Of a stretch of 64,000 bases of DNA, positions 1 to 45,255 are shown one piece after another. Positions within the stretch are counted from its first letter, which is position 1. Each line of letters starts with the position of its first letter. Source of the DNA: Oxynema aestuarii AP17 (lineage in GTDB: Bacteria > Cyanobacteriota > Cyanobacteriia > Cyanobacteriales > Laspinemataceae); the NCBI RefSeq assembly GCF_012295525.1, contig NZ_CP051167.1, forward strand, positions 5,877,299 to 5,941,298, in the 5' to 3' direction. A model generated the notes under the pieces. That model had not been told where the DNA came from. It searched no databases and saw only the letters and a list, made by a program, of their open reading frames with translations. A program made the translations under genes and the position numbers.

Positions 1-2564
1 GGAAAGGGGGGTGCTGGAGGATTTTCTCCAAGGGGTGAGTTCAAATTCACTCCCTCTAAGCCCCCCTTATTAAGGGGGGTTGGGGGGATTTCTCCCCCCA
101 GCAACTGCCGCATTTGCGACCAGTCCAGTTCGGTCACCGCGTCGGCCCTACCGTAGAATAACCAAGACAAACAGGCATTTTTCCCCGCCTCCGCGACGGC
201 GAAGGCGCGCCCGACCTCACCCCGTCGCACGCACAGATCCACCGTTAACTGCTTAAAATCGGCAAACTGGAGGGCGAGTTGGCGTTGCTTCCCGGGACTG
301 GGGCAACAGTCCACCAAACGGCGCACCAGATCGGTTCCCCGCCGTTGCAACTCCTGGGCCTGTTCGATTTCGTCGAAGCTCAGCAATAGGCGAATCAAGG
401 GGCGTAAAACTTCTAAATGTCTTTCGGGATAGGCGGTTTCCGTAAGGGTTTCGAGGGCGAGATTGTAATGTTCGAATGCAGTTCTTCTATCCGGATCGCG
501 GTTGGTGGCTTTTCGGCGCGATCGAAGGTCATAGAGATTGCCGATCGCAAAATGTAAAGTACCCCACCCTTCCGGATGGGTGTCTTTCTGGCAATACTTC
601 AACCCTTCTCGGTAAGTGAGCAATGCCCCTTCAAACCCTCTCTGGTTCAAATCTGGGTTGAGGAGAGCGAGGTCAGAGGGCAAATAGGGAGAATTTCGTC
701 TGTCTACCTGGTTTGCAGCCTGACCCCGCATAGCCCAAGCTTCCCACTTATCGCGTTTGAGGATTAAGGCTGCATCATATGAGGCGATCGCCTCCTCATA
801 TTGTCCTAAGTTATCCTGCGCTGCCCCTCGGTTGTTATAAGCCTCGGGGTAATCCGGTCGGAGGCGGATGGCTTCGTTGTATGAGGCGATCGCCTCCTCA
901 TATTGTCCTAAGTTATCCTGCGCTGCCCCTCGGTTGTTATAAGCCTCGGGGTAATCCGGTCGGAGGCGGATGGCTTCGTTGTATGAGGCGATCGCCTCCT
1001 CATATTGTCCTAAGTTACCCTGCGCATTCCCTCGGTTGAAATAAGCCTCGGGGTAATCCCGTCGGAGGCGGATGGCTTCGTTGTATGAGGCGATCGCCTC
1101 CTCATATTGTCCTAAGTTACGCTGCGCTGCCCCTCGGTTGTTATAAGCCTCGGGGAAATCCGGTCGGAGGCGGATGGCTTCGTTGTATGAGGCGATCGCC
1201 TCCTCATATTGTCCTAAGTTATCCTGCGCTGCCCCTCGGTTGTTATAAGCCTCGGGGTAATCCGGTCGGAGGCGGATGGCTTCGTTGTATGAGGCGATCG
1301 CCTCCTCATATTGTCCTAAGTTACGCTGCGCTGCCCCTCGGTTGTTATAAGCCTCGGGGAAATCCGGTCGGAGGCGGATGGCTTCGTTGTATGAGGCGAT
1401 CGCCTCCTCATATTGTCCTAAGTTACGCTGCGCTATCCCTCGGTTGTTATAAGCCTCGGGGTAATCCGGTCGGAGGCGGATGGCTTCGTTGTATGAGGCG
1501 ATCGCCTCCTCATATTGTCCTAAGTTACGCTGCGCTATCCCTCGGTTGTTATAAGCCTCGGGGTAATCCGGTCGGAGGCGGATGGCTTCGTTGTATGAGG
1601 CGATCGCCTCCTCATATTGTCCTAAGTTACGCTGCGCTGCCCCTCGGTCGTTATAAGCCTCGGGGAAATCCGGTCGGAGGCGGATGGCTTCGTTGTATGA
1701 GGCGATCGCCTCCTCATATTGTCCTAAGTTATCCTGCGCTGCCCCTCGCAGGGCATAAGCCTCGGGGTAATCCGGTCGGAGGCGGATGGCTTCGTTGCAT
1801 GAGGCGATCGCCTCCTCATATTGTCCTAAGTTATCCTGCGCTGCCCCTCGCAGGGCATAAGCCTCGGGGTAATCCGGTCGGAGGCGGATGGCTTCGTTGA
1901 ATGAGGCGATCGCCTCCTCATATTGTCCTAAGATATGCTGCATACCCCCTCGGTTGTAATAAGCCTCGGGGTAATCCGGTCGGAGGCGGATGGCTTCGTT
2001 GCATGAGGCGATCGCCTCCTCATATTGTCCTAAGTTAAACTGCTCCTTCCCTCGCTCAAACCACACCTGAGCCTCATCTTTCTCCTTCTCCCCCGCTTCT
2101 GAAACCTTCTCCTCCGGTTCTGCAACCTTCTCCCCCGGTTCTGCAACCTTCTCCCCCGGTTCTGCAACCTTCTCCCCCGGTTCTGAAACCTGGGCTAACA
2201 CTTCCCTACCAATTTTCGCGGCAAGTGCGCCCCATTCCTCCCCATAAAGTTCGCCAAACTGCACCATCCGCCGTGCTAGTTCTTGATGCTGGGTGGGATT
2301 GTCCGACAAGCGATTGGCGAAACCTTCCAACCAAGTCGTCCACTGCGAGGGTGCAATTCCTTTGGCGATGAGGAACCCCTTCATCTGTCCGCGACTGGCC
2401 CCCTGTTCCATCCAATCGAGCAAATGTAGAAATGTAGACTCCAATTCCGTCGCCGAGAAAGACGGACGCGGTGGTGAGGGCGGCGGAGTCGGGGTCGGTT
2501 TGTGCCACCATTGCCGCAGTCGGCGATAGAGTCCGGTCAGCCAGCGCCACAGTCGATGCAACAT
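1..2564 (-). CDS. TPR-repeat protein, probably the N-terminal two thirds of a TPR-CHAT-type protein; the C-terminus runs off the window start
   Basis: Reverse-strand translation from the ATG at ~2564 reads MLHRLWRW...FGELYGEEWGALAAKIG, then (EPGEKVA)x4, then about 12 canonical 34-aa TPR units (AEAYYNRG..LGQYEEAIASYNEAIRLRPDY), then a non-TPR region (…VAEAGKNACLSWLFYG…). That last region resembles the segment preceding CHAT domains. AGGA lies 9 nt upstream of the ATG and an in-frame TAG lies 6 codons upstream. The minus frame whose + triplets start at positions = 0 mod 3 has no stop in nt 1-330. The gene is absent from the ORF track because it has no in-window stop. Confidence 0.7.
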   Translation of the reverse strand, partial: MLHRLWRWLTGLYRRLRQWWHKPTPTPPPSPPRPSFSATELESTFLHLLDWMEQGASRGQMKGFLIAKGIAPSQWTTWLEGFANRLSDNPTQHQELARRMVQFGELYGEEWGALAAKIGREVLAQVSEPGEKVAEPGEKVAEPGEKVAEPEEKVSEAGEKEKDEAQVWFERGKEQFNLGQYEEAIASCNEAIRLRPDYPEAYYNRGGMQHILGQYEEAIASFNEAIRLRPDYPEAYALRGAAQDNLGQYEEAIASCNEAIRLRPDYPEAYALRGAAQDNLGQYEEAIASYNEAIRLRPDFPEAYNDRGAAQRNLGQYEEAIASYNEAIRLRPDYPEAYNNRGIAQRNLGQYEEAIASYNEAIRLRPDYPEAYNNRGIAQRNLGQYEEAIASYNEAIRLRPDFPEAYNNRGAAQRNLGQYEEAIASYNEAIRLRPDYPEAYNNRGAAQDNLGQYEEAIASYNEAIRLRPDFPEAYNNRGAAQRNLGQYEEAIASYNEAIRLRRDYPEAYFNRGNAQGNLGQYEEAIASYNEAIRLRPDYPEAYNNRGAAQDNLGQYEEAIASYNEAIRLRPDYPEAYNNRGAAQDNLGQYEEAIASYDAALILKRDKWEAWAMRGQAANQVDRRNSPYLPSDLALLNPDLNQRGFEGALLTYREGLKYCQKDTHPEGWGTLHFAIGNLYDLRSRRKATNRDPDRRTAFEHYNLALETLTETAYPERHLEVLRPLIRLLLSFDEIEQAQELQRRGTDLVRRLVDCCPSPGKQRQLALQFADFKQLTVDLCVRRGEVGRAFAVAEAGKNACLSWLFYGRADAVTELDWSQMRQLLGGEIPPTPLNKGGLEGVNLNSPLGENPPAPPF
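779..2045. repeat. About 12 tandem, near-identical 102-bp units, each encoding one 34-aa TPR on the minus strand
   Basis: The + strand ORF-track artefacts show M at exact 34-aa spacing (779, 881, 983, 1085…1799). Units differ only at a few positions (gttatcctg vs gttacgctg; cggttgttataagc vs cgcagggcataagc). Confidence 0.9.
2096..2192. repeat. 21-bp tandem repeat, about 4.5 units (ggttctgcaaccttctccccc), encoding (EPGEKVA)n in the TPR protein
   Basis: Direct reading of the sequence; perfect copies at about 2117, 2138 and 2159. Confidence 0.85.
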
Positions 2565-2851: not shown

Positions 2852-4411
2852 TTACAGGCGATCGCCCCAATCGGTTTCGGGACGCAGAACGGGGGGTTTA
2901 ATATCGCCGAGTCGTTGACCGCGTTCTAAAGCATATTCGATATACTTCTCCATCGGGCGGGAGACGCAACGGGCGACAGGGGGCGCGAGTTGACCCAGTT
3001 GGCGGGCGTAACGATATTGGGGATTGGTTTGTAAGGCCCGGTCTAAGTCCCGGGCGAGGTCTGCGGCCCGATCGCCCGCCGCCTCGTCCAGAAACAGAAT
3101 ATAATGAGGGCGATCGCGCAAGCACGGGGTCAGCATGGCGAAACCGCCAGGATGCAGGGGCTGCAGTTGCGCCCAGACGAAGGCTTCGGTCAATTTTTCC
3201 CCACACAAGTCGCTGACCAGTCCCGCCCGTCCGATAAATTCCAGTTGGGGCGTTTGTCCGTACCATCCCGTCACTCGCACTCGATCGCCCAAGTCGTAGC
3301 GATACAAACCGCCATCGGTGGTGACGACGACTCGATAGACCCCGCCACTTTCGACCTCGTGGACGAGGCGCGATCGCCCGTCCTCGCCGATAAATTCGTA
3401 AAAGCCGCTCTCTACGGCCAATACGGGCGACGGACACCCGGCGATCGGGATCGTCACTGCTGCCTCGGTTGCCAGCAACCCTTTTCCCTGGATCCACACG
3501 TGAGGAAAAGCCCCTTGCAAGGAACGCACAAAAGCGGCGGCACTGGCATCGGTCCAACAGCTAATCGTATCCAACTGCGGCCACAACTGGCGGGTATCGA
3601 TCGCCCCGGAGGCGAGCGATCGTGACACTAAGTGAGCGCGCTCCGGGTTCGGCGGCAGGGGCGGTAACCCGGGAACGGTGGTTCCCCGCGCCAAATCGCG
3701 CACCAGGCGATCGCCGTTTCCCTCGATTTCGGCGAGCAATTCCAGCAAAAACGTGGGACTCCACACGGAAATTAAGGCCAATTGGGGCGACGCCAGCAAG
3801 TATAAAGCCGTGAGATAGCGCCAGCGATCGATCGCGGCGATCGCGGCAATTTGCGGCGGAACGGCGAGCAACTGCACGATGTGAGGGGCGAGGCGATCGC
3901 CAAAATAGAGGGCGTCATTGCCCGTCGGAAGGGTCACCGGGCCGACAGTCGGGGATTGGGGGCGGGCGATCGGCGAAATCGCCCAATAGGTCGGACCGCA
4001 GGCGATTCCCGGGCGATGTGCGAGCAAATTGGCCAACCAGGGAAACAGCGCCCTCTGAAACGCCGCCAAACTCCCTCGGGTGTAGGGAATCAGCTTACTC
4101 CCGGAGGTACTGCCCCCGGTCACTTCAACGGCGATCGCCTCATCGGCGCACAAAACCCCGGTTTCCCCCGCCGCCATCCGAGCGATCGCCTCGGCGAGGT
4201 CCTCGTAGGTGTGAATCGGGACGCGATCGCGATAGTCCCGGTCGTCGGCGATCGTCCCAAAGCCGTACCGCCGCCCGATTTCAGTGGTTTGGTTGCGGGT
4301 GAGAAGGTCGTGGAGGCGCGATCGTTGCACGGCGATCGCGCGATCGGTTGCGTTCGAGAAATCGACCCAAAACGGATCGCAAGCGTCTCGAATAAATTGC
4401 CAGTTTTTCAC
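2852..4411 (-). CDS. GH3 (auxin-responsive promoter) family adenylate-forming protein
   Basis: 519-aa ORF with the VTGGSTSGSKLIPYT motif typical of the GH3 / acyl-adenylate superfamily, and a YEDLAEAIARMAAGETGVLCADEAIAVEVTGG N-terminal region. Confidence 0.6.
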   Translation of the reverse strand: MKNWQFIRDACDPFWVDFSNATDRAIAVQRSRLHDLLTRNQTTEIGRRYGFGTIADDRDYRDRVPIHTYEDLAEAIARMAAGETGVLCADEAIAVEVTGGSTSGSKLIPYTRGSLAAFQRALFPWLANLLAHRPGIACGPTYWAISPIARPQSPTVGPVTLPTGNDALYFGDRLAPHIVQLLAVPPQIAAIAAIDRWRYLTALYLLASPQLALISVWSPTFLLELLAEIEGNGDRLVRDLARGTTVPGLPPLPPNPERAHLVSRSLASGAIDTRQLWPQLDTISCWTDASAAAFVRSLQGAFPHVWIQGKGLLATEAAVTIPIAGCPSPVLAVESGFYEFIGEDGRSRLVHEVESGGVYRVVVTTDGGLYRYDLGDRVRVTGWYGQTPQLEFIGRAGLVSDLCGEKLTEAFVWAQLQPLHPGGFAMLTPCLRDRPHYILFLDEAAGDRAADLARDLDRALQTNPQYRYARQLGQLAPPVARCVSRPMEKYIEYALERGQRLGDIKPPVLRPETDWGDRL

Positions 4412-4485
4412 CTCGTTAAAATTGATACAACTTCACTTAATCTTTGCAACTATAACAGAGTTTTGTTCTCTCAAAATTCAATCTT

Positions 4486-6233: not shown

Positions 6234-6797
6234 GATACTTCCAAAAGTAGTACAACTCTATTATGACGAGGGCTTCCACGAGCCGCAATAGCCCGACGCC
6301 TCGATGCGCCATCCCACGGCGGCGATCGCTCTCGACCCCATCGAACCCTGGGTGAGTTCAAAAGAGCGCATTTGTAGGCTTCCCGCTTTTATTTCAAAAT
6401 GTAAAATTAATGTCAATTAACTTTTATTTTTGTAAAGTTTTTCAACTCGATTGACGAGCCCTGGGCGGGTCAAAAGACAATCGACCCCAGCCTTGAATTG
6501 TGGGGAGCTAACGGGAATGGGATCCACAAAAGCTAGCTCGTTTGTACCCCGGGAACGATCGCGACACGGCGATCGCACTCCCCGATTGCTACCCGGCATC
6601 CGTTCGAGGCGATCGCCGCTTCAACGCTTGACGAGACAAGGATTTCGCAAGGATCGACCCCGCTAAACTCCGAGCGGCGATCGACCCCTTACCACGGCGG
6701 CGATCGCAGGGAGGCGATCGAAAAAAACGCCGACAAATTTTGTGTTATAGTTGCATCAGTTAATTTTTCCTTTATGACCATCGCATAATTCAATCAA

Positions 6798-7253: not shown

Positions 7254-7359
7254 TCGCCGGGTTAGTTTAATAAAATAAACCGTCAGTCATCATCTTTGAG
7301 ATTGGATTGACAACCTATCGCCATTCCCATCTAGCGAATAGAGGAAGTTTACGATCGAA

Positions 7360-8247: not shown

Positions 8248-8383
8248 ATATTAATCTTGGGGTGTGTCTACTTCCCCATTCAAGCCAACCGGGGACGAGG
8301 GGGCCGGGAACGATCGCATTTTGTCGTATACTACAAGACCTAGCGATCGCCTATCCGCTTTTCGACTGCTATCGTCCTTGCCC

Positions 8384-9562
8384 ATGATGCCCAACGATCC
8401 CTATATTTGGATAGACCGCGCCCTCGATGCCATTCACCGGGCGAATTGGTATCGATCGCCGCAAGCGATTAGCGCCCCCGGGGCCGTGGTGGAAATTCAA
8501 GGGCAACGGCTGCTCAATTTCGCCAGTAACGATTATTTAGGCTTGGCAGGCGATCGCCGTTTGGTAGAAGCCGCCGTCGCCGCCACCCGCACCTACGGAA
8601 CCGGAACCACCGGATCGCGCCTGATTACCGGACATCGACCCCTGCATCGGGAACTGGAACGGGCGATCGCCGATCTCAAGCAGACCGAAGATGCCTTAGT
8701 GTTCAGTTCCGGCTACTTGGCCAATCTCGGCACGATCGCCGCGTTAGTCGGCAAACGAGATTTAATCCTCGGCGATCGCTACAATCACTCCAGCCTCAAA
8801 AATGGGGCGATTCTCAGTGGGGCCACGGCGATCGATTATCCTCACGCCGAGCTGCCAGCCTTGCGCGAGCTGCTCTCACAACATCGAGACCAATATCGGC
8901 GCTGTTTGCTGGTCACCGACAGTATTTTTAGTATGGATGGGGATTTGGCGCCCCTGCCCGCCTTACTCGACCTCGCCGACGAGTTTAGCTGCATGTTGCT
9001 GGTAGACGAAGCCCACGCCACCGGGGTTTTAGGGGCAACGGGAGCCGGGGCGATCGAAGCGTGCGGCGGTCGGGAACGCCCCTCGATCCAAATGGGAACG
9101 TTGAGTAAAGCCCTCGGCAGTTTGGGGGGCTACGTGGCGGGTTCGCGTCAGGCGATCGACTTTTTGCGAAACCGCGCGCCGACCTGGATTTATACAACTG
9201 GCCTCTCCCCCGCAGATACGGCGGCGGCGATCGCCGCGATCGCGATCGTGCGCGACGAACCCGAACGGCGGGCCCGACTGTGGCAGAATGTCGCATCTCT
9301 CAAACAGGGACTGGAACGGGCCGGAATCGAAGGGGTGTTACCGTCCGATTCGCCGATTATTTGCATCCAGATGCGCGACGCCGCCACCGTTCTTGAAGCC
9401 GGACGACTGCTCAAAAAAGCGGGGATTTTAGTCGCTGCGGTGCGCCCCCCGACCGTACCGACCAGCCGCCTGCGCCTCACCGTGATGGCGAGTCACACTC
9501 CCGAACAGTGCGCGGCGCTGGTTGACCGCCTCAAAGGGTTGAAAGAACGGGGATTGGGGTGA
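8384..9562 (+). CDS. bioF: 8-amino-7-oxononanoate synthase (PLP-dependent)
   Basis: Class-II aminotransferase-like: [19 protein letters not shown], and the PLP-lysine motif [16 protein letters not shown]. The ORF-track ORF starts at 8264, but the likely start is MMPNDP (~8384), giving about 393 aa. Confidence 0.8.
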
Positions 9563-15844: not shown

Positions 15845-15917
15845 GCCCCCATCGTCTAGAGGCCTAGGACACCTCCCTTTCACGGAGGCGACGGGGATTC
15901 GAATTCCCCTGGGGGTA
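15845..15917 (+). tRNA. tRNA-Glu (anticodon UUC), 73 nt, CCA not encoded
   Basis: GCCCCCATCGTCTAGAGGCCTAGGACACCTCCCTTTCACGGAGGCGACGGGGATTCGAATTCCCCTGGGGGTA: 7-bp acceptor stem, D-loop TCTAGAGGCC, anticodon loop CTTTCAC, T-arm GGGGATTCGAATTCCCC. Confidence 0.92.
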
Positions 15918-15940
15918 CTTGAAACATTTCAGCATCGCTA

Positions 15941-16070: not shown

Positions 16071-16143
16071 GCCCCCATCGTCTAGAGGCCTAGGACACCT
16101 CCCTTTCACGGAGGCGACGGGGATTCGAATTCCCCTGGGGGTA
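16071..16143 (+). tRNA. tRNA-Glu (anticodon UUC), second identical copy
   Basis: The 73 nt are identical to 15845..15917. Confidence 0.92.
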
Positions 16144-16157
16144 CTAAGCCACAAAAA

Positions 16158-22243: not shown

Positions 22244-22672
22244 ATGGTATTGTCGGTTAACGAGCAAACGTTTAAAAAAGAAGTTTTAGAAGCAACCTCC
22301 CTAGTTTTGGTTCATTTTTGGGCTCCGTGGTGCGGTCCGTGCCGGATGATCGAGCCGATCTTGAGTGCGTTCGAGCAAGAATGGGGAGAAAAGCTCAAGA
22401 TCGTCGGAATTAATGCAGACCTCAACTTAAAGCTCGCCAGTGCTTATCGGTTGAGTACCTTGCCCACCTTGATTCTGTTCGATCGCGGTCAAATCGTGCA
22501 TCGCGTCCAAGGATTGCAAAACCGCGACGAGTTATATGACGCCGTGCGTTCCTTCGTGACGCTCGATCGCTTTGCCCGTCGGCCCGAGTCGGTCTCGGAG
22601 GTCGCGCAGGAGGGACTCGGCGAAACGATCGCCCCCGGTTCGCTCCCCAATTTAGTCAGCACCCCGCTCTAA
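22244..22672 (+). CDS. Thioredoxin-family protein with about 35-aa C-terminal extension
   Basis: Active site WAPWCGPCR; the last about 8 codons and the stop lie inside the structured repeat (copy A). Confidence 0.8.
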   Translation: MVLSVNEQTFKKEVLEATSLVLVHFWAPWCGPCRMIEPILSAFEQEWGEKLKIVGINADLNLKLASAYRLSTLPTLILFDRGQIVHRVQGLQNRDELYDAVRSFVTLDRFARRPESVSEVAQEGLGETIAPGSLPNLVSTPL

Positions 22673-23090
22673 AGAGACGGGGCTTCGTGCCTCTCCTTTA
22701 GTAGGGGCGTTTCGCGAAACGTAGGTAGGGGCGTTTCGCGAAACGCCCCTACCCAGCCTAAACCCTTCGAGGGCTACGTTATCGGTAAGGGTTAAAGTTC
22801 CTACCTTGGGATCCGTCGCCAGTCCCCTGCTCTAGAACCAAGCCGTTAAACCGTCGTACTAGGGGTAAGACCGTGCGGTTTGGAAAGTACCGACCGATAA
22901 CATTGGCGAGGCGCTATGACGCCGTGTACTTTAGGTGGCTCCGGCTCACAGGAGCGAGGGAAAAGTGCACCTCTTTTTGCTCCCCCACGAGGGGACGGCG
23001 ATTAAAACCGCCCGTGTCGTTTTTCCTCCCTGCGCTAAAGCGACAGGGTTTCCAAACAAGAGCGAAGATTTTCCGTGAACATTAGTGCTT
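22647..23090 (+). ncRNA. Structured ~440-nt repeat, copy A; candidate novel ncRNA or MITE-like element
   Basis: About 90% identical to 37347..37775, with indels and compensatory stem changes (ccctg…caggg vs ccccg…cgggg). Contains perfect hairpins (gtaggggcgtttcgcg aaacgcccctac; agcccttcgagggct); copy A has a 28-nt internal duplication. The short internal ORFs differ by frameshifts and many nonsynonymous changes. Confidence 0.45.
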
Positions 23091-35009: not shown

Positions 35010-35345
35010 GTGAACACCGAATTCAAACCGTCTCCAATCCTTGCCCTGACTCTAGCAACGATCGCCTCGGGAGCGATCGCGATCCAGTCCCCCGAGGCGA
35101 TCGCCCACGCCCCGAAATATCACCAGCGCTCTGAAAGTGAATCGAGTCCCTCGACCTCCCCTAAACCCGCATCCCAGAACGGATCCGAACCCTCTCAAGA
35201 CCCGACAGCCACCGTCGCCAGCCCTCACTCACCACGGACCGAACAGGGGAACTTACACCCGGGATGGAAAGAATCGGTTTTGGGTCTCCTATTCGGCGGT
35301 TACGGTCTTTTAGTCTGGCTCAAACAGCACCTGCATCAACCATGA
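35010..35345 (+). CDS. Small Ser/Pro-rich protein with N-terminal signal and C-terminal TM (doubtful)
   Basis: ORF only; low-complexity composition; overlaps the start of the next gene. Confidence 0.25.
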   Translation: MNTEFKPSPILALTLATIASGAIAIQSPEAIAHAPKYHQRSESESSPSTSPKPASQNGSEPSQDPTATVASPHSPRTEQGNLHPGWKESVLGLLFGGYGLLVWLKQHLHQP

Positions 35346-36337
35346 ACCACTCTTGTTTCTTTCGGATCGCCCGCTCGACGGCGATCGCCCTGTTCGCCGG
35401 AACTCTTACCCTGGGATGTTCGCCACGTCCCGAACTGCAGACGTTTTATCCGGCGCCGATGCCTTCTCCCTCGGTCCCGGCGACGCCGACGCGATCGCCC
35501 GCCGAACTCGCAGCACTGACCCGCGCCCCCAACTGGCAGCAGGACAACCACGTTCACGCCCTCGGCGTCGATCCGGACAATCCCGAAGTTCTCTACATTG
35601 CCACTCATTACGGCTTGGTACGACGCAGCGAAGACGGACAGTGGTATTGGGTCGGCGACGATCGCTCGGATTATATGGGATTTGCCGTGGATCCGGGCGA
35701 TCGCGACCGCTTTTATATGAGCGGACACCCGCCGACCGGAGGGAATTTGGGATTTCGAGTCACCGAGAATCGCGGTAAAGATTGGAAAACCGAGTCGATG
35801 TCCGGAGTAGATTTCCACGCGATCGCCGTCGCCCCGGCAGATCCGAAAACGATTTACGGATGGGCGACCTCCGGAGAAGTCGGCTTTTTCGTTTCCCGCG
35901 ATCGCGGTCAAACCTGGACCGAACTGCGACCGATCGGCTTGGAAGAGATGCCCTTTAATTTAATCGTGGATCCCGCTCGCCCGGATCGGGTATTTGCTAC
36001 GACCCGGGCGGGATTGTACCAAAGCAATAATAGCGGTCGCAACTGGGCGTTAGTCCCCAACACCGACACGGCGCCGATCGTCGGTCTCGCCGTTCTCGAA
36101 GACGGGACGGAAAGTACCCTCTACGGCTATCGCTTGCTCGACTCGGCTCCGGGACTGTATCGCAGTAACAATGGCGGTCAAACTTGGGAAACCTTCGGGG
36201 AAGGCATTGAAGGCATCGTCGTGCATTTGGTGCAGGCGCCGGGAAATTCCCAAATCCTTTATGCCGCGAACCAGGACAATGGTATCTTCCAATCGAGAGA
36301 TCGCGGCGCCACCTGGACGGCGATCGCGACTCCCTAG
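35342..36337 (+). CDS. Lipoprotein with BNR/sortilin-like beta-propeller (Ycf48-like fold) repeats
   Basis: Lipobox LTLGCS; repeated S.D.G.TW motifs (SEDGQWYW, TENRGKDWK, SRDRGQTWT, SNNSGRNWA, SNNGGQTWE, SRDRGATWT). Confidence 0.6.
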   Translation: MNHSCFFRIARSTAIALFAGTLTLGCSPRPELQTFYPAPMPSPSVPATPTRSPAELAALTRAPNWQQDNHVHALGVDPDNPEVLYIATHYGLVRRSEDGQWYWVGDDRSDYMGFAVDPGDRDRFYMSGHPPTGGNLGFRVTENRGKDWKTESMSGVDFHAIAVAPADPKTIYGWATSGEVGFFVSRDRGQTWTELRPIGLEEMPFNLIVDPARPDRVFATTRAGLYQSNNSGRNWALVPNTDTAPIVGLAVLEDGTESTLYGYRLLDSAPGLYRSNNGGQTWETFGEGIEGIVVHLVQAPGNSQILYAANQDNGIFQSRDRGATWTAIATP

Positions 36338-37346: not shown

Positions 37347-37775
37347 GGGTCAGCACCCCGCTCTAAAGAGACGGGGCTTCGTCCCTCTCCTTTCGTAGGG
37401 GCGTTTCGCGAAACGCCCCTACCCAGCCTAAGCCCTTCAAGGGCTACGTTATCGGTAAGCGTTAAAGTTCCTACCTTGGAATACGTCGCCAGTCCCCTGC
37501 TCTAGAACCAAACCGTTAAACCGTCGTCCGAGGGGTAAGACCGTGCGGTTTGGGAACTACCGACCGATAACATTGGCGAGGCGCTATGACGCCGGGCACT
37601 TTAGGTGGCTCCGGCTCACCGGAGCAAGCGAAAACTGCACCTCTTTTCGTTCCCCCCACGAGGGGACGGCGATTAAAACCGCCCGTGTCGTTTTTCCTCC
37701 CCGGTCTGAAGACACGGGGCTTCTAAACTTACCGGAGATTTCGTGAGAATCCAATGATGTCCCTCGACTCCAAAT
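37347..37775 (+). ncRNA. Structured ~440-nt repeat, copy B; ends at or overlaps the start codon of the NB-ARC gene
   Basis: See copy A; its 3' part (…ggagatttcgtgagaatcc) runs into the ATG at 37754. Confidence 0.45.
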
Positions 37776-39151
37776 ACCAGGAATTTCTCGACGCACAGGC
37801 CAAACATCACGCTTTATCTCATGCGGAATGGGAAGCCCTCAATTTAGCCGTAACAGGTCACGAAATTAGTGCCATTGCCGAACAACTGCACGTCCGACCG
37901 GAAGCGATCCGCCAGCGACTGAGTCAAATCTACCAAAAATTTAACATTCAAGGACGCGGCCCGGTCAAACTGGCGAAACTGCAAAAACTCCTGCAGCAGC
38001 GCTACCAAGAACATTGTATCGCCCGCGAAGCGGAACTAGGAAGTTGCTGCTGCGATCGCCTCGGGAGCGCCATTCCCCAGGATTGGGGCAACGCGCCCGA
38101 TCTGAGTAGCTTTTACGGACGCGAGGCGGAACTGGCCACTCTAAAGCGCTGGATCGTTGGCGATCGCTGTCGCTCGATCTCCATTTTAGGACTGGGTGGC
38201 ATCGGTAAAACCAGCTTGGCGATCGCCGCCGTCAAAGAAGTTCTCGAAGCGGGAAACTTCGACACGCTCATTTGGCGATCGCTCTCCCACGCACCGACCC
38301 CAGAAACTTTACTCGACGACCTGTTGCTGCGTTTCTATCCAGAAACCTTCGATCCGCCTGCGGCGATCGCCACCAAAATGACCCTCGTCATCGAAGGGTT
38401 GCGATCGCGGCGCTGCTTAATCGTCTTGGACGACGTCGAAACCATTTTACGCCCTGGCGACCGTCTCGGACGCTACCAAAGCGGCTACGAGGTCTACGGA
38501 CAACTGTTTCAACGCGTCGGAGAATCGCCCCATCAAAGTACCTTCCTGATTCTCTCTCAAGAAAAACTGCGAGAAATCTCCTTACTCGCCGGACCGAATC
38601 AACCGGTGCGCTTGCTCAAACTCGACGGACTCAAACTCGAAGATGCCCGACAATTGCTCCAGGAAAAACACCTGAGCGGACAACCGGAACATTGGCAAGA
38701 GTTAATCGATAATTATCGCGGCAATCCCCTCGCTTTAAAAATTGTCGCCACGACGATTCAAGAAGTGTTTGGTTGCAGCGTGGATCGCTTTATAAAATAC
38801 AAAACCTTGGTGATTAAAGACCTGTTTCTCGAAGTACTCGAACGACAATTCGAGCGTTTATCTCCCTTGGAACAAAAAATTGTTTTTTATTTAGCACAGA
38901 ATCAATATCCGCATTCTTTAGAACAAATTCACCTGCAAATGAAAACCACGAACTTGAGTCATTCCGACTTAATCGAACCGTTGGAATCCCTAAGCGGGCG
39001 ATCGCTGATCGAAAAAACCAAAAATCACGAAACCCACGAACCCCTGTTTACCCTCCAACCCGTGATTCGCAAATATGCGATCAAATACCACCTCGCCGAA
39101 ATGGAAGTCAGCGAGAGTGAGGGCGCCGCGATCGAACCGACCCGGTTATAA
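37754..39151 (+). CDS. STAND-type NTPase: N-terminal LuxR/GerE HTH plus NB-ARC domain, with no C-terminal repeat sensor
   Basis: HTH LSHAEWEALNLAVTGHEISAIAEQLHVRPEAIRQRLSQIYQKF; P-loop ILGLGGIGKTSLAIA; Walker B CLIVLDDVE; GNPLALKIV (GxP motif). Confidence 0.75.
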   Translation: MMSLDSKYQEFLDAQAKHHALSHAEWEALNLAVTGHEISAIAEQLHVRPEAIRQRLSQIYQKFNIQGRGPVKLAKLQKLLQQRYQEHCIAREAELGSCCCDRLGSAIPQDWGNAPDLSSFYGREAELATLKRWIVGDRCRSISILGLGGIGKTSLAIAAVKEVLEAGNFDTLIWRSLSHAPTPETLLDDLLLRFYPETFDPPAAIATKMTLVIEGLRSRRCLIVLDDVETILRPGDRLGRYQSGYEVYGQLFQRVGESPHQSTFLILSQEKLREISLLAGPNQPVRLLKLDGLKLEDARQLLQEKHLSGQPEHWQELIDNYRGNPLALKIVATTIQEVFGCSVDRFIKYKTLVIKDLFLEVLERQFERLSPLEQKIVFYLAQNQYPHSLEQIHLQMKTTNLSHSDLIEPLESLSGRSLIEKTKNHETHEPLFTLQPVIRKYAIKYHLAEMEVSESEGAAIEPTRL

Positions 39152-39464
39152 GATCCAGCCGACGGCGATAGGAGGAGTCGCGCACGCGAAAGCGCCGTGC
39201 TAATCCTCCTCGTTCGACGCTCTCCCCTACGACTCTCCCCCCATATGCTGCGACGCACCAAGCCCCCGACTATACTTTACGATCGCGCGACCGTCGCATC
39301 TCCGCCGCCCCTACTTTTCGCCGCTCCCTACGGTTAGCCTCTCACGGTGGCTACTACTATTTTAAAAAGTTAGAATAGTTATATATTTTCAACCCCTTCT
39401 CGATGGTGTCGTTTCTCTAGCTAATTTTTCGGTGAAATGCTTTTGTAACCATTTCCCTTAATAT

Positions 39465-41156
39465 GTGAAATACTGTATCAATCCAGCCTGTCAACACCGT
39501 CAAAATTCCGATGCTGCCCTATCCTGTCAGGGATGCGGCACCGATTTGCTCGTGGGCGGACGCTATCGCCTGCTCCAGCCATTGCGATCGCTCGAAGGTC
39601 ATTACCCCACGGAACTGTTCGAGGTAGACGATCGCGGTACCCCCAAAGTAATGAAAGTGCTGGTACAACGGCGCCCGGAAGCGATCGAGATGTTCGAGCG
39701 CGAAGCCCTGACCTTACAATCCATCCAGGCTCCGGGGATTCCTCGGGTGGAACTCGACGGCTTCTTTAGCGTCTCCCTCCCCGACAGCACGCGCCCGGTG
39801 TACTGCTTGGTCATGGAAAAAATCGACGGCGAAACCCTAGAGCAGTGGTCCGCGCGTTGGGGCAAACTCCCCCAACGCCTCGCCCTCAACTGGCTCAGAC
39901 AGCTCATCGCCATTTTAGATTTACTGCACGGGAACGGCTGCTTTCACCGCGATATCAAACCCTCGAATATTATTTTGCAACCGGACGGTCAACTGGCGTT
40001 GATCGACTTCGGTTCCGTTCGCAACGTCACCGATACCTACCTGGCGAAACTCAAAGGTGGACTCGCCGTGACCAGCGTCATTTCCGGCGGCTATACCCCA
40101 CCGGAACAAATCGAAGGGAAAGCCCTCCCTCAATCGGATTTTTTCGCCCTCGGGCGCACCTTCGTCCACTTGCTTACAGGTCAATCCCCCGTCGATTTAC
40201 CCTCCAATCCCAAAACGGGGAGGCTGATTTGGCGCGATCGCGCCGAACAGGTTTCCAAACCCCTCGCGGATTTTATTGACGAGTTGATGGCGCCGTTGCC
40301 CCGCCAGCGCCCTCAAGATACCGCCAGTATCAGACGTTACTTGAGCCGTCGGGGTTTGTGGCTGCATAGTATATTGGGGATGCTGCGATCGCCCCAGATG
40401 AAATATAGCCTTCTCGGACTGTTGGCCTTCGCGCTCTTGTATCGGTTCTCTTTCCCTACCCAAGCGCAATATTACTACGATCGCGGTCTCGAAGCCTACC
40501 GACAGAAAGAGTACGAACGCGCCCGCCATTATTACGAACAAGCCCTTGAATTCCATCCTACCGATCCGAAAATTTATAATAATTTAGGATTGTTGTGCGC
40601 TAAGGAATTTGACTGGGCTTGCGCTCAAGAAAACTATCAAAAAGCCTTGGATCTCAATCCAGACAATCCATTCACTCAGTATAATTTGGGGGGACTTTAC
40701 GACGATTCCGGCAACTTCGAGCAAGCCGAACGCTTGTACCGTCTTGCTAGCGAATCCCCCAATCCGGTGACCGCCCACGCCTTGAGCGATTTAGCGCGGA
40801 TGCACATTTTACAAGGGGATACCGAAGCGGCGATCGCCTTGAGCGAACGGGGGTTAAAAGCAACCGACCGTCCTAAAGTTAGGGCGGCATTATATAAAAA
40901 TCTAGGTTGGGCGTTCTGGATCGAAAACGATTACGCCCGCGCCGAATCGCACCTGCGAGCGGCGATCGCCGCCAACCCCGAACGGAGCGACAGTTACTGT
41001 TTGCTCGCCCAAGTTCTCGAAGCTCAAGGCGATCGCGACCCCCCCCTCATGTATTGGCAAAATTGCCTAAAGCAGAACCCCCGCATTCAATTAGACCTGC
41101 TCGCTTGGCAAACCCTCGCCCGCCAACGACTGAACCAGGCGCGAGGCGATCGTTAA
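39465..41156 (+). CDS. Ser/Thr protein kinase with N-terminal zinc-ribbon and C-terminal TPR repeats
   Basis: CINPACQHRQNS…CQGCGT; catalytic loop HRDIKPSNIIL; DFGS; TPR units after a TM segment. Confidence 0.8.
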   Translation: MKYCINPACQHRQNSDAALSCQGCGTDLLVGGRYRLLQPLRSLEGHYPTELFEVDDRGTPKVMKVLVQRRPEAIEMFEREALTLQSIQAPGIPRVELDGFFSVSLPDSTRPVYCLVMEKIDGETLEQWSARWGKLPQRLALNWLRQLIAILDLLHGNGCFHRDIKPSNIILQPDGQLALIDFGSVRNVTDTYLAKLKGGLAVTSVISGGYTPPEQIEGKALPQSDFFALGRTFVHLLTGQSPVDLPSNPKTGRLIWRDRAEQVSKPLADFIDELMAPLPRQRPQDTASIRRYLSRRGLWLHSILGMLRSPQMKYSLLGLLAFALLYRFSFPTQAQYYYDRGLEAYRQKEYERARHYYEQALEFHPTDPKIYNNLGLLCAKEFDWACAQENYQKALDLNPDNPFTQYNLGGLYDDSGNFEQAERLYRLASESPNPVTAHALSDLARMHILQGDTEAAIALSERGLKATDRPKVRAALYKNLGWAFWIENDYARAESHLRAAIAANPERSDSYCLLAQVLEAQGDRDPPLMYWQNCLKQNPRIQLDLLAWQTLARQRLNQARGDR

Positions 41157-41216
41157 CCGACCGTCCACTTGCTTTCCTTATTTCCATCCATCCCATCTCT
41201 GGAGGCAGAATAGTCG

Positions 41217-42131
41217 ATGAAACTCACTGGCTACCTCGGTTTGTGCGTCCAAACCCTTTTCGGACTGATTCAGTTTTTCGAGATCGCCCAACCCTTGAGA
41301 GCGATCGAGCATTCTCCGTCCCTGGCGGGCAACCTAACGACCGATTCCTGTCAGCGAATCGGACGGGTCTTGAGAGCGAACGACAATTCCCTGATGTCCG
41401 CCGAAAATACTGCCCTATGCGTCGAAACCGTCATCCAAACTCCCCCCGGTCGTCAATTGAGCGCCCTTTGCTTTGAGAATCTCGAAACCGTCGTGATTCC
41501 GGCAGGTCAGACTTGGCACGGTGGCGATCTGTGTCCCCCGGTTGCTCTCGTCTGCGACGAGGAACGCGGCTGCGCCCCTGAAGATCCGCGCAGCCCGGAA
41601 GAGCTACAAGACAGTCCCAGAATTGTCAGCCCGTACAACACGGCCTCGATCGACGATCGCCCTACCTTCTCCTGGAAGCACATCGCGGGAGTCGATTACT
41701 ATATCTTGAGAGTAGAAGATTTAAGCGGTAGCGACCAGAACCGAGAAAGCCGCTACACCCCCTCCGCCATGACAACGGGGGATCCGATCGAATTTCAATA
41801 TCCTTTTGACAAGCCTTTAACCCCAGGCAATGAATATATCACCACGGTCGAAGGGATTAGCAATACCAGCGATCGCCGGATCGTCAGATCGAGGAGTTAC
41901 TTAAAAATGCTCGACCGCAAAACCCACAGCCAGATCGATCGCGCGATCGCCCAACTCGACCGTCTCGACCTTTCCCCCCGCGAACAACTGCTCGACCGCC
42001 ACGCCATTTATATTAGCCACGAGTTGTTCGATCTCGCGATCGTCATGCTCGAAAACTGGATCGCAGACCATCCCCACGATTCCGAGATCGTCGGCTTACT
42101 TGAAGACCTCAAAAAAAACCAACAGATTTAG
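41217..42131 (+). CDS. Hypothetical Cys-rich protein, possibly exported
   Basis: ORF with a hydrophobic N-terminus; no family recognised. Confidence 0.45.
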   Translation: MKLTGYLGLCVQTLFGLIQFFEIAQPLRAIEHSPSLAGNLTTDSCQRIGRVLRANDNSLMSAENTALCVETVIQTPPGRQLSALCFENLETVVIPAGQTWHGGDLCPPVALVCDEERGCAPEDPRSPEELQDSPRIVSPYNTASIDDRPTFSWKHIAGVDYYILRVEDLSGSDQNRESRYTPSAMTTGDPIEFQYPFDKPLTPGNEYITTVEGISNTSDRRIVRSRSYLKMLDRKTHSQIDRAIAQLDRLDLSPREQLLDRHAIYISHELFDLAIVMLENWIADHPHDSEIVGLLEDLKKNQQI

Positions 42132-42191
42132 ATGTAAAATCTACAATCTACAATCTACAATTCCCAATTTTTTACACAGTTACGATCGCTC

Positions 42192-44912
42192 TCAATGCCA
42201 GTCTCCCGCGAGAATAAATGCCGCCCAATAGTAAGGTAAATGATAGTTTTGGTCGCGATATTGGGGATCGTGTAAAAACGTTAGTTGAGTCTGACGCAAC
42301 GCCTCCGCTTTCGTGAGGTTTGACTGGCGCCAATGGCGGTAAAACTCGCGCATGAATAACGCCGTCGAACCGTCGGCGACCTTCCACAAACTGGCTAAGG
42401 TACTGCGCGCCCCGGCTTGAACCGCGACCCCGGCTAGACCCAAACCGCCGCGACGGTCAGATTTCGCCGTTTCACAGGCACTCAAGACCAGTAAATCGAT
42501 CGGAAAAAGACTACTTTCGATCCGGCGTCGGACGAAGCGATCGAATTGACGGACGTTAATCGGGTCGTCGAAGGCGAGAATAAAGGTCTTTTGAGGATCC
42601 GAACTGAATTCACCGTGAGTGGCAATGTGAACGATCGAAAAATCGGCGTGATTGATTTGTTTTTCAAAAGCATCGCGGGTAAAGTCTTCGTCCAAAAGAA
42701 TCTTGCTGTCGCCGATTTCTGCTTGTACTTCCTGTAATTCTCTCTTTACCGCCGGGAGTTCGTCGAAGTTCGTTCCAAAACTCGGACCGTTTCTAACTCC
42801 TGCCAATAAACCCCGGGGTTCGGACGAAGTTGGGGGCGGATTCGAGTCGAGCTGCGATCGCAAACTAAACGCCAAGCTATATTTTTCAATTAAATATTGG
42901 CCTTGTTCGTCTTGCAACATGGCCATCGGAATAGTTTGTAGCAAACTGTCAGTAACAAACACTAAAGTTCCCGAATCGGGCAAGAGATCGCGAGTGGGTT
43001 GAATTAAAAGTTGGTAGAGTTCGCGAGCGGCTTTAGCGATTTGTTCTTGGTTAATACGAGGATTCAGTGAATACTCTTCTATAAAAAAATTTAAAGATTT
43101 AATTTGTCGTTTGACCGCCTGCCATGGGACTGAGTAATAGTAAAATTGCCGTTCGGAAGCATCGGGAACCTTGACTACGATCGCGATCGAATTGTACTTT
43201 TCTAAGACGATCGCGTACAGAATGGCTGCAGGGTTGTCTTGGAGGTCGGAGTCGGGCTGACTTTCGATCGATAAATCACAACCGAGAAAATTTTCTAATT
43301 CGGCCAACCCGAAGCGATCGATGAGTTGAGCCACGGTTGCGAGTCGATCTTCAAAGGGTTCCCATTTCAAAAGGACAAAAATATAGTCTTCATAAATATC
43401 TCGGACGGTTTCTTGAAAAGAAAACTGTACTTCTCTTTCTAGGGAAAGTAAATCTTGGCGAACTTGCTCTACTTGTTCGACTGCCATTTCGTAAGCGGCG
43501 ATCGCCATGGGAATTTCTCCGAGACTGTAGGCGATATTTCCTAACTGTTGTTGCCAGCGATAGCTCAGTTCTGGAGCGGCGATCGCTTCCGACAGTACCA
43601 CCGCTCGTTCGGTCCATTCTCGGGCGAGATTCAAGTTACTGTGTTTCTGGTAGAACATCCCCATCAGACCGGAGGCATAAATCTCGGTCTGAGTATGGTT
43701 CAATTGGCGAGATGCGCCCAGAGCTAACTCGATTTGGGCGATCGCCTCGCGACTGTATTGGCGATCGCCCCATTGCATTAAAGTATGGGCAAAATTGAGC
43801 CGCGCGTAGATTTCCTCAATCGCCGATAAGCCGGAAAATAATAACGGATCGGCGACTAACTGCTCCACGGTCGGTTCGATTTGAGCGTCGAGCTGGCGCC
43901 ACTCCTGAGTCAGGATCGCATTGTCATCCTGTCCGGCACCTTCCTCCTTCAACCACTCGGCGATCTCGACGAGCAAACTCAAGGCATTGAACAGCGCTTG
44001 AGAGCGGGTGCCGTTGGCACTTTCCCACTCATTCTCCCTTCGTCCTATACGGCGATAACGCTCCAGGGTTCCCTTACCCAATTCGATCGCTTTGATGCGA
44101 TCGCTGGATTGTTCGGTACGGTCGTAAAAACTGCGCTGGCGATTGTATCGCGCTCGTTGGGTGTTCGCCAAGCTCAGTTCGATAATAGCGATCTCCCGAC
44201 CCGAGCTCCACGATCTCGCCAGTTTCAGGGCTTGTTGCAACACCGTTTCCGATGCTTTCAATTTGCCGATCTCGCGCAAGATTTCCCCCAAATTCTGTAA
44301 GGCGAGCTTCTCGATTGCCGTGGAAAGACCGCAGTGCGACTCCGTACAAGCCAACTCGAACCCATCCTCTGTTTGGGCTTCACACAAAAGATCGCCCCCC
44401 TCAATCGGGAGAATCCCAACTAATACTTTACAAGCACGACGATATTGACCTTGGGTTTGGAAAACTACACTTTGGTTGATCTGGCTTCCTACGATCCCGT
44501 CACGATCGCCCAACTGGCGATACAGTCGTTCCGCTTCTTGCCACAACTCTAAGGCTTTTTGGTAGTTGCCCCGGGCAAAGTATTGGTGTCCCTCCCGGGT
44601 TAACAGGCGAGCTTGACGCCGCCATTGGGAGGACGGCGCGATCGTTTGCACCCGAAGCAGTTCCGAAGTGAGCGGGTTCGGGACGAACGGCAATGCGATC
44701 GCGCGTTGAGTCATTCCTTCGCCAAAAATTGTCCAGAGGAACAGGGCGGTTCCTCCCGCGATCGAAATAGAACGTATCCTAGCGCACCCCCGACGCTCCA
44801 GCCAAGGTTCTAGCATCTGAAATTTATAACAACCCCTGAATTGTCTAGAATCAGTCAACAGCGCACTTCTGACCCCTACTTGGCGCGATCGCCTCAGAAG
44901 TGACCGAACCAC
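42192..44912 (-). CDS. TPR-repeat plus CHAT-domain (caspase-like protease) protein
   Basis: 906 aa; TPR units in the N-terminal two thirds; C-terminal CHAT with HIATHGEF (His) and LLVLSACETA (Cys) catalytic dyad motifs. Confidence 0.8.
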   Translation of the reverse strand: MVRSLLRRSRQVGVRSALLTDSRQFRGCYKFQMLEPWLERRGCARIRSISIAGGTALFLWTIFGEGMTQRAIALPFVPNPLTSELLRVQTIAPSSQWRRQARLLTREGHQYFARGNYQKALELWQEAERLYRQLGDRDGIVGSQINQSVVFQTQGQYRRACKVLVGILPIEGGDLLCEAQTEDGFELACTESHCGLSTAIEKLALQNLGEILREIGKLKASETVLQQALKLARSWSSGREIAIIELSLANTQRARYNRQRSFYDRTEQSSDRIKAIELGKGTLERYRRIGRRENEWESANGTRSQALFNALSLLVEIAEWLKEEGAGQDDNAILTQEWRQLDAQIEPTVEQLVADPLLFSGLSAIEEIYARLNFAHTLMQWGDRQYSREAIAQIELALGASRQLNHTQTEIYASGLMGMFYQKHSNLNLAREWTERAVVLSEAIAAPELSYRWQQQLGNIAYSLGEIPMAIAAYEMAVEQVEQVRQDLLSLEREVQFSFQETVRDIYEDYIFVLLKWEPFEDRLATVAQLIDRFGLAELENFLGCDLSIESQPDSDLQDNPAAILYAIVLEKYNSIAIVVKVPDASERQFYYYSVPWQAVKRQIKSLNFFIEEYSLNPRINQEQIAKAARELYQLLIQPTRDLLPDSGTLVFVTDSLLQTIPMAMLQDEQGQYLIEKYSLAFSLRSQLDSNPPPTSSEPRGLLAGVRNGPSFGTNFDELPAVKRELQEVQAEIGDSKILLDEDFTRDAFEKQINHADFSIVHIATHGEFSSDPQKTFILAFDDPINVRQFDRFVRRRIESSLFPIDLLVLSACETAKSDRRGGLGLAGVAVQAGARSTLASLWKVADGSTALFMREFYRHWRQSNLTKAEALRQTQLTFLHDPQYRDQNYHLPYYWAAFILAGDWH

Positions 44913-45051
44913 AGAATCGGTTCTTTACTCTAGTTGATGACTGGCTATCAATATTTTCTCAGGCTTTTTCTGGGCTGGGGAGAACTTGCAACCGTTTGAA
45001 ATGTGCGATATCGAGATCTTGCCGATTGAGAATCACGAAACCCAATCCCTC

Positions 45052-45255
45052 TCAACCATCGGGAAACTGCCAGCAGCACAAATGCTCGACATCCGAACTG
45101 CCACACTCCGGACAATCCGCCTCTTCTGAAGAATCCACCCATTCGGCATCGCAACGGCGACAGTGGCAGAAAATGTTATTGCGATTGGCCTGTTCGATCC
45201 CCTGTTGCCATTCTTTGAGACCTTCGGAGTCGAACATTTTGGGAATTTCAGACAT
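45052..45255 (-). CDS. Small zinc-ribbon protein (CxCxxC … CPEC), 67 aa
   Basis: MSEIPKMFDSEGLKEWQQGIEQANRNNIFCHCRRCDAEWVDSSEEADCPECGSSDVEHLCCW. The 4-Cys arrangement suggests zinc binding. Lies directly upstream of and co-oriented with the CHAT gene. Confidence 0.4.
   Translation of the reverse strand: MSEIPKMFDSEGLKEWQQGIEQANRNNIFCHCRRCDAEWVDSSEEADCPECGSSDVEHLCCWQFPDG

Follow-up and report, generated by a model that had tools for sequence, protein, structure and literature searches.

Comparison with described systems

AfsK phosphorylates the SARP-NB-ARC-TPR regulator AfsR, and PknH phosphorylates EmbR, which is encoded by a neighbouring gene. In both cases a Hanks-type Ser/Thr kinase is paired with a regulator that bears a helix-turn-helix (HTH). 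A similar pairing is found in a 64,000-nt stretch of the genome of Oxynema aestuarii AP17 (contig NZ_CP051167.1, positions 5,877,299 to 5,941,298; hereafter the window), where the genes for a short STAND NTPase, a receptor-type kinase, a protein of 304 aa (here called P304) and a CHAT-domain protease lie side by side (Table 1). A sequence-only reading of the window had flagged these four open reading frames (ORFs), together with a fifth for a small zinc-ribbon protein, as one cluster. An ORF check combined with Pfam and NCBIfam scans confirmed all five ORFs, their coordinates and their domains. The genes for STAND, kinase, P304 and CHAT, but not the fifth, belong together as a copy of a cassette conserved across cyanobacteria. 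The window holds a chromosomal copy of this widespread cassette without the gene for a two-partner secretion (TPS) exoprotein.

The likeness to the two described pairs extends to the NB-ARC ATPase of AfsR, the single-pass receptor architecture of PknH and the adjacency of pknH and embR. There are also clear differences. The HTH of the cassette is LuxR/sigma-r4-like, whereas that of AfsR is of the SARP type, and the cassette STAND protein has neither the TPR sensor of AfsR nor the FHA domain of EmbR. The cassette kinase, unlike AfsK and PknH, has a 4-Cys prefix and a predicted extracytoplasmic TPR array, and neither of the described pairs is linked to a CHAT, fn3 or TPS module. Membership of the AfsK/AfsR system was rejected, as the NCBIfam AfsK model gave 43 bits against a cut-off of 1300 and the STAND protein lacks SARP/BTAD and TPR. 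The resemblance may point to a possible mode of action, not to membership.

CED-4 is a sensor-less NB-ARC protein under the control of a partner protein. It shares with the cassette STAND protein an N-terminal effector followed by a nucleotide-binding domain (NBD), a helical domain (HD) and a winged-helix domain (WHD) without repeat sensor, and the structural match has an E-value of about 1e-11. However, the CARD effector of CED-4 activates a caspase in the same compartment, whereas the effector of the cassette is an HTH and its caspase-family protease is predicted to be exported. PD-T4-6 is a single-gene system. The cassette kinase matches it in PADLOC over the kinase region only and is predicted to be a transmembrane TPR receptor within a conserved cassette of 4–6 genes. 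Similar in gene content are the DUF928/CHAT/TPS/ShlB neighbourhoods, where a secreted CHAT protein is encoded beside a small secreted β-sandwich protein and TPS genes, but P304 stays below the DUF928 threshold and the window contains neither TPS nor TpsB genes. CHAT domains with a His/Cys dyad are also found in HetF-PatU3 of Anabaena and in Csx29 of the type III-E Craspase, the latter likewise combining TPR with CHAT. Like Csx29, HetF (PMC9457339) is a site-specific regulatory protease and not a bulk degrader. HetF and Csx29 act in the cytoplasm, whereas the CHAT protein of the window has a signal or anchor sequence, and there are no CRISPR genes at the locus.

Full-text searches returned no paper that, judged from title and abstract, appears to describe the cassette, which is apparently undescribed. 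They also gave no paper with both DUF928 and CHAT; DUF928 was mentioned in one survey of prokaryotic WD40 proteins. By term search, a large survey of NTP-dependent conflict systems (Kaur et al., 2020; PMC7159879) lacks the terms hemagglutinin, POTRA, two-partner and DUF928, and cassette-relevant terms are likewise absent from the paper on CyRepA1, the plasmid replication protein that is considered below. From its sequences the cassette appears to join a CHAT/TPS module, predicted to be exported, to a receptor kinase that would act on a STAND regulator, and to belong to no described group beyond the individual domain families. One conserved unit of 4–6 genes thereby unites a eukaryote-like receptor kinase, an NLR-type ATPase reduced to its core and a caspase-family protease that is predicted to be exported. 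Many cyanobacterial lineages have this unit, and a strain often carries several copies.

Conservation of the cassette

The closest genome, that of Oxynema sp. CENA135, has the same gene order and a STAND protein that is 97% identical. In Oxynema, Planktothrix (two loci), Phormidium, Kamptonema, Coleofasciculus and metagenomes, the STAND, kinase and P304 genes follow each other in this order on one strand and converge with the CHAT gene, at 22–55% identity. In a scan based on the STAND alignment, with one genome per species (80 loci), a 4-Cys kinase lies directly downstream of the STAND gene in about a quarter of the loci. When all ORFs of 85 STAND-anchored loci were searched with a profile, P304-family genes were found only directly after a cassette kinase (Oxynema, Planktothrix, Coleofasciculus and Geitlerinema). 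A check anchored on P304 agrees with this: in all four loci (Phormidium nigroviride, Kamptonema sp. UHCC 0994 and two metagenome contigs) the kinase gene is followed by a P304-like gene and then, on the opposite strand, by the genes for CHAT and a TPS-domain protein. The STAND gene directly precedes the kinase in the three of these that reach far enough upstream, while one metagenome contig is cut within the upstream gene.

The cassette is also plasmid-borne. A tblastn search of PLSDB identified full-length kinase orthologues (35–46% identity) on 56 plasmids, all cyanobacterial. A CHAT gene lies 0.9–1.4 kb downstream on the opposite strand in at least 47 of the 56, with examples in Nostoc, Acaryochloris, Leptolyngbya, Nodularia and Fischerella, and a P304-like gene lies between kinase and CHAT in at least 43. 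Seen from the other side, the kinase is found within 3.5 kb for 43 of the 44 P304-like plasmid genes. These three counts are lower bounds, taken from the best place in each record. The convergent arrangement of P304 and CHAT is kept across relatives and plasmids alike.

Relatives have a median distance of 16.5 bp between the STAND stop codon and the kinase start codon, with an overlap in four pairs. This spacing is operon-like and suggests that the two genes are often translationally coupled. A chance juxtaposition of abundant gene families might be suspected, as filamentous cyanobacteria have STK, TPR, CHAT and NB-ARC genes in very large numbers and most STAND homologues, for example the 1180-aa forms in Nostoc, have other neighbours. 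It is excluded by the conservation data and we give it practically no weight: order and orientation are identical across cyanobacterial orders and dozens of plasmids despite the low identity, P304-family genes keep to the place behind the cassette kinase from whichever gene the loci are anchored, and the spacing in relatives is that of an operon. The sequence-only reading had taken the genes as a functional cluster and had named gene-order conservation beforehand as the test of that claim. As the order was found conserved in many genera and on plasmids, the claim survives.

The 67-aa zinc-ribbon protein had been counted as part of the same cluster, and here the claim has to be withdrawn. The ORF gave only weak zinc-ribbon or HypA-like matches. 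An identical protein occurs in Oxynema-like assemblies only, always in the order hcp, zinc-ribbon gene, CHAT, and the gene differs from that of CENA135 by one synonymous change. It is absent from the 85 comparison loci, the four P304-anchored loci have no 67-aa gene at its position, and in other genomes a TPS exoprotein gene stands there. We therefore regard it as a lineage-restricted neighbour.

In relatives the TPS exoprotein gene adjoins the CHAT gene, sometimes together with a TpsB gene. Annotated regions with both cassette and TPS gene come from Nostoc sp. C057, N. punctiforme pNPUN01, PCC 7120 alpha, Acaryochloris pREB2, Leptolyngbya boryana, Nodularia and Fischerella, and in Nodularia, Fischerella and Leptolyngbya a TpsB/Omp85 gene is present too. 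In tblastn searches of the window, neither gene was found, whether with three TPS proteins or with another two queries for each of TPS and TpsB, so that the window locus lacks the TpsA plus Omp85/ShlB pair that defines two-partner secretion. The window also has no CyRepA1 gene.

Between the window genome and CENA135, the rate of nonsynonymous divergence (dN) is 0.068 for P304 and 0.051 for CHAT, compared with 0.002–0.023 for the other genes in the comparison. All ratios of nonsynonymous to synonymous divergence (dN/dS) are below 1, that of P304 being 0.44. The synonymous divergence (dS) is 0.15–0.21 for kinase, P304 and CHAT, 0.09 for STAND and 0.024–0.028 for hcp, the zinc-ribbon gene and crp. 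The CHAT region has a GC content of 0.48 vs. about 0.54. The raised synonymous divergence suggests recombination or older alleles at the cassette.

Table 1. Features of the cassette and of its surroundings, numbered from the first nucleotide of the window.
Feature	Position (nt)	Strand	Remarks
STAND NTPase	37754..39151	+	465 aa; HTH aa 6–62 = nt 37769–37939; NB-ARC aa 124–434 = nt 38123–39055
Receptor-type Ser/Thr kinase	39465..41156	+	563 aa; 4-Cys prefix, kinase domain, predicted transmembrane segment, TPR array
4-Cys prefix of kinase	39471..39548	+	aa 3–28
Transmembrane segment of kinase	40404..40454	+	aa 314–330; predicted
TPR array of kinase	40464..41099	+	aa 334 to about 545
P304	41217..42131	+	304 aa; signal-like N-terminus, six-Cys β domain, linker, fn3-like sandwich, TPR-like helices
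Six-Cys β domain of P304	41349..41573	+	aa 45–119
D-P-R-S-P linker motif of P304	41583..41597	+	contains R125
fn3-like sandwich of P304	41622..41909	+	aa 136–231
TPR-like helices of P304	41916..42119	+	four helices, aa 234–301
TPR-CHAT protease	42192..44816	-	874 aa from ATG 44816; ORF reaches GTG 44912 (906 aa)
CHAT domain	42201..43034	-	PF12770
Catalytic Cys813	42474..42476	-	predicted dyad
Catalytic His766	42615..42617	-	predicted dyad
Zinc-ribbon ORF	45052..45255	-	67 aa, CxxC...CxxC; lineage-specific neighbour
HEARO RNA	37349..37728	+	RF02033
HEARO, second copy	22655..23057	+	86.6% identical
TPR-repeat ORF	3..2564	-	854 aa, runs off window start; repeats at 778–2037 and 2084–2191
GH3 family protein	2852..4411	-	519 aa
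tRNA-Glu(TTC)	15845..15918	+	
tRNA-Glu(TTC)	16071..16144	+	
BNR/Sortilin-type repeat gene	35264..36337	+	intact

The STAND protein

Pfam detects the NB-ARC domain of the STAND protein at E 3e-13 (49.9 bits, cut-off 23.5). The GerE HTH (PF00196) reaches 22.4 bits, just below the cut-off of 23.5 (E 9e-5), the N-terminus matches the MalT HTH region in NCBIfam (E 1.6e-5), and PF00196 is present in 47 of the best 120 homologues. In the alignment of the family, Walker A (G146-T153, with G146, G149, G151, K152 and T153) and the Walker B residue D226 are invariant, and the GxP motif (GNPL, 323–326) is invariant or nearly so. An AlphaFold2 model built with 23 homologues (pLDDT 86.6) has a helical HTH bundle at residues 6–62, a long helix and a disordered linker, followed by NBD (124–305), HD (311–349) and WHD (356–434). 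The chain ends at residue 465, one helix past the WHD. The best Foldseek matches of the model are plant NLR NB-ARC modules and CED-4, with E-values of 1e-11 to 1e-13.

The protein thus has the Walker A, Walker B, GxP and NBD-HD-WHD features of the NB-ARC/AP-ATPase clade but not a TPR, WD40 or LRR repeat sensor, which is typical of the family without being obligatory. That it has no C-terminal sensor repeats had been claimed from the sequence alone, and the model bears this out. We describe it, on the basis of the model, as a sensor-less NB-ARC protein with a putative, LuxR/sigma-r4-like HTH and putative DNA binding. An exact-sequence look-up of the STAND protein returned no record. In a neighbour-joining tree, the short STAND forms nearest to that of the window almost all precede a full-length kinase, while the 1180-aa Nostoc relatives have C-terminal repeats of their own and no adjacent kinase.

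The spacer between the STAND and kinase genes of the window has no other copy within the window. A scan for promoters and terminators gave consensus-level sites slightly above shuffled sequence, none of them interpretable.

A HEARO RNA (Rfam, 107.6 bits; IscB omega-RNA family) lies upstream of the STAND gene, at a distance of about 160 bp from the start codon, and has no adjacent IscB/HNH ORF. This element of about 400 bp occurs a second time in the window. It is missing at this site in CENA135, the sequence of which aligns up to the element start. A non-autonomous mobile element thus seems to have entered the promoter region of the STAND gene recently.

The receptor kinase

The kinase matches Pkinase (E 1.5e-26, 93.8 bits) and several TPR models in Pfam, and its N-terminus matches the NCBIfam model 4Cys_prefix_kin (NF045510; 36.6 bits, cut-off 24). 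The prefix cysteines C4, C9, C21 and C24 are kept in 22–23 of 24 orthologues. The Hanks kinase domain follows at about residues 35–295, and K64, E80, H161-R-D163, K165, N168 and D181-F-G183 are invariant in all 24. The β3 Lys, αC Glu, HRDxKxxN loop and DFG of Hanks-type kinases are therefore all present. The GxGxxG of the Gly-rich loop is not, and the cassette kinases have a conserved PLRxL(D/E)..T(D/E)(I/V)FEV instead (residues 35–60; nt 39465–39740).

Between the kinase domain and the TPR array (residues 311–360), a hydrophobic segment is found in 23 of the 24 orthologues, and in 20 of these 23 there is an excess of Lys and Arg on the kinase side. The PD-T4-6 model of PADLOC (PDLC04051) matches residues 1–294, including the 4-Cys prefix, with E 2e-102.

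The CHAT protease and P304

The CHAT domain (clan CD) is detected by Pfam with E 1.7e-64 and 218.5 bits (cut-off 24), and the protein also matches TPR_12/TPR_MalT. The true start is likely the ATG at 44816, as called in the CENA135 and JGI assemblies; the residue numbers used here refer to the longer ORF of 906 aa. The dyad residues His766 and Cys813 are invariant in 15 of 15 orthologues, and with both domain and dyad present, protease activity is predicted. All 15 also have an N-terminal hydrophobic signal or anchor. A search of PDB sequences with the CHAT protein gave generic TPR matches only, and no solved CHAT structure was matched.

P304 has no Pfam or NCBIfam match. Its family was found by an exhaustive HMMER search, where a word-indexed search gave two near-identical matches and a family-profile search seven. 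A signal-like hydrophobic N-terminus is present in 24 of 28 relatives. The six conserved Cys residues all lie within the 75-aa N-terminal domain and would fit a disulfide-bonded exported domain. The linker that follows is flexible, with low confidence in the model, and contains a basic residue (R125) that is invariant as Arg or Lys across the family. This makes the linker a candidate cleavage site.

In cassette position and overall architecture P304 is analogous to DUF928 (PF06051). The cassettes of Floridaenema and Microseira have a true DUF928 gene (E 1e-47 to 1e-51) at the position of P304. The Planktothrix orthologue reaches 24 bits, and 6 of the 28 family members match DUF928 at E-values up to 0.01 (best 4e-5). 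Membership was nevertheless rejected, since P304 falls below the gathering threshold of 26 bits, with no match even at E 10, and hhalign gave a probability of 0.2 against a true DUF928 protein.

Predicted topology and possible function

The hydrophobic segment in 23 of the 24 kinases and the N-terminal signals of the CHAT and P304 relatives place three parts of the cassette, namely the kinase TPR array, CHAT and P304, outside the cytoplasm by prediction, while the STAND protein and the kinase domain are predicted to be cytoplasmic. Two earlier suggestions do not fit this topology. The TPR arrays of the kinase or the CHAT protein had been proposed to supply in trans the sensor that the STAND protein lacks, which is unlikely as the arrays are predicted to lie across the membrane from it. 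An NLR-to-caspase death pathway had also been proposed. With CHAT predicted outside and STAND inside, direct activation of CHAT by STAND is implausible.

The domain content and conserved gene order of the cassette, together with its undamaged catalytic residues and its predicted topology, lead us to propose tentatively that it is a trans-envelope signalling module, in which exported CHAT and P304 act on a receptor kinase and this in turn on a sensor-less STAND regulator. We hold this to be quite possible, though with considerable doubt. The exported CHAT and P304 (elsewhere with a TpsA-like exoprotein, with or without TpsB) would make or process a signal in the periplasm or at the cell surface. 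P304 is a plausible CHAT substrate that could be cut at the invariant Arg/Lys of its flexible linker; this guess is made because many clan CD proteases, among them metacaspases, gingipains, clostripain and separase, cleave on the C-terminal side of Arg or Lys. The single-pass receptor kinase would read the state of the signal through its extracytoplasmic TPR array, and its cytoplasmic kinase domain with the 4-Cys ribbon might act on the product of the adjacent gene, the HTH-NB-ARC ATPase. Phosphorylation could then gate the nucleotide-dependent switching or the oligomerisation of the STAND protein, and hence DNA binding and transcriptional output. If true, this would be a bacterial NB-ARC switch controlled in trans by a kinase instead of by its own sensor, and a CHAT protease working outside the cytoplasm. 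The cassette offers testable candidates for the function of the P304 family, which has no Pfam assignment, of 4-Cys-prefix kinases and perhaps of DUF928.

Several points weigh against this proposal. Who cleaves whom, the phosphorylation of STAND by the kinase and transcription as the output are steps that we infer. Judged from its sequence, a kinase family without canonical Gly-rich loop is not certain to be active. The predicted transmembrane segment of the window kinase has a low hydrophobicity of 1.51 over 17 aa and includes an Arg, and the exported parts may reside in the thylakoid lumen instead of the periplasm. The HTH is below the Pfam GerE threshold in this STAND protein and undetected in the plasmid STAND proteins, the N-termini of which nevertheless align with the HTH-bearing N-terminus of the window protein. 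With 313 bp, the gap between STAND and kinase in the window is an atypically long outlier. The window copy is without the TPS gene present in most other cassettes, and may be a partial or receiver-only version. Finally, a plain signalling model does not explain the tight linkage to a plasmid replication gene described below.

The death pathway just mentioned belongs to a broader alternative, an NLR-like system for conflict, abortive infection or programmed cell death in which STAND and kinase detect an invader and trigger CHAT to kill or arrest the cell. According to the survey of Kaur et al. (2020; PMC7159879), the conflict systems of multicellular bacteria typically contain NB-ARC, CHAT and STK parts. 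The strong PD-T4-6 match of the kinase, the multi-copy and plasmid-borne occurrence of the cassette, and the fact that P304 and CHAT evolve fastest between the two Oxynema genomes would all fit. However, the PD-T4-6 models are generic Ser/Thr kinase profiles, the other four proteins match no system-specific PADLOC model (STAND and CHAT gave only weak generic matches), and every dN/dS is below 1. As its effector the STAND protein has an HTH in place of a death or adaptor domain, it lacks sensor repeats with which to recognise an invader, and by prediction the membrane separates it from CHAT, P304 and the kinase TPR array. We consider the conflict alternative unlikely and keep to signalling across the envelope as the preferred reading.

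Plasmid copies and linkage to CyRepA1

The sequence-only reading had associated the toolkit with filamentous and colonial forms. The unicellular Acaryochloris has several copies of the cassette, which is thus not confined to filamentous or colonial organisms. Several co-resident plasmids of one strain may each bear a copy, as do four plasmids each in Nostoc sp. C057 and C052.

Among the plasmids for which both genes are listed, the kinase is 2.2–5.7 kb from the replication gene CyRepA1 in 37 of 39, where chance would predict about 8%. The cassette is found on 37 of the 43 listed CyRepA1 plasmids of at least 100 kb and on 2 of the 17 smaller ones. Many CyRepA1 plasmids are related to each other, and these counts are not independent events; the linkage, however, extends to very divergent CyRepA1-like genes of Acaryochloris and Leptolyngbya. 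On Nodularia pUHCC0039a (locus 1929–7985) and on pCC7120alpha (locus 1–5389), the STAND gene is divergent from the kinase and co-directional with a small gene and CyRepA1. The small gene is annotated as FinO-like in Nodularia, and the layout is as if STAND, small protein and Rep formed one transcription unit.

These observations suggest another alternative, a replicon-linked megaplasmid module for maintenance, copy-number coupling, plasmid competition or TPS-based surface recognition, of which the Oxynema copy would be a chromosomally captured derivative without TPS. The near-constant distance to CyRepA1, the preference for large plasmids, the several copies on co-resident plasmids, the co-directional layout in Nodularia and PCC 7120 and the linkage to divergent CyRepA1-like genes all speak for it, as does the fact that TPS systems underlie contact-dependent inhibition. 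But no rep gene is near the cassette in the window or in Planktothrix, Phormidium and Kamptonema, and the copies of Oxynema and Phormidium, at least, are on Mb-scale contigs that look chromosomal. The Nostoc plasmids are interrelated, so that the adjacency may be inherited and not selected, it is not obvious how a periplasmic protease would influence replication, and the plasmid of PCC 7120 persists although its cassette is disrupted by TnpB. We consider this alternative improbable. Similarly low is the probability we assign to a combined form, a replicon-linked trans-envelope system in which a TPS-CHAT-fn3 surface module is read by kinase and STAND and couples surface or kin information to plasmid replication, maintenance or competition, with the Oxynema copy as a captured receiver without TPS. 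The near-constant place beside CyRepA1 on large Nostoc-type plasmids points to an unrecognised function of the megaplasmid backbone, relevant to cyanobacterial plasmid biology and vector design.

The disrupted copy of Nostoc sp. PCC 7120 (pCC7120alpha, 245494–248706) has its kinase gene split into a stand-alone ORF for the 4-Cys prefix, a TnpB gene and the remainder of the kinase. In this state the copy is probably inactive, a possible reason for the absence of a reported phenotype. Intact cassettes are found in N. punctiforme (pNPUN01, NPUN_RS34060-34080), Leptolyngbya boryana and Trichormus variabilis ATCC 29413, all of them tractable hosts.

Other features of the window

The ORF at the start of the window had been taken for a second TPR-CHAT gene. 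The TPR part of this claim holds, as the ORF encodes 13 TPR units, but its 854 in-window residues contain no CHAT domain and the ORF runs off the window. A 102-bp tandem repeat (12.4 copies, 95% matching) accounts for twelve of the 13 units, and five copies of a 21-bp repeat encode (EPGEKVA)n. Such near-identical coding repeats suggest a recent expansion or an assembly-prone region.

The BNR/Sortilin-type repeat gene is intact in the window, whereas its counterpart in CENA135 (locus 6515–8985) is split by an insertion of an IS605-family OrfB/TnpB. The two tRNA-Glu genes have the same anticodon and the same Rfam score and lie 150 bp apart. The 519-aa protein encoded near the window start has all three domains of the GH3 family (N-terminal domain E 6.5e-42), the family of plant auxin/jasmonate amido synthetases.

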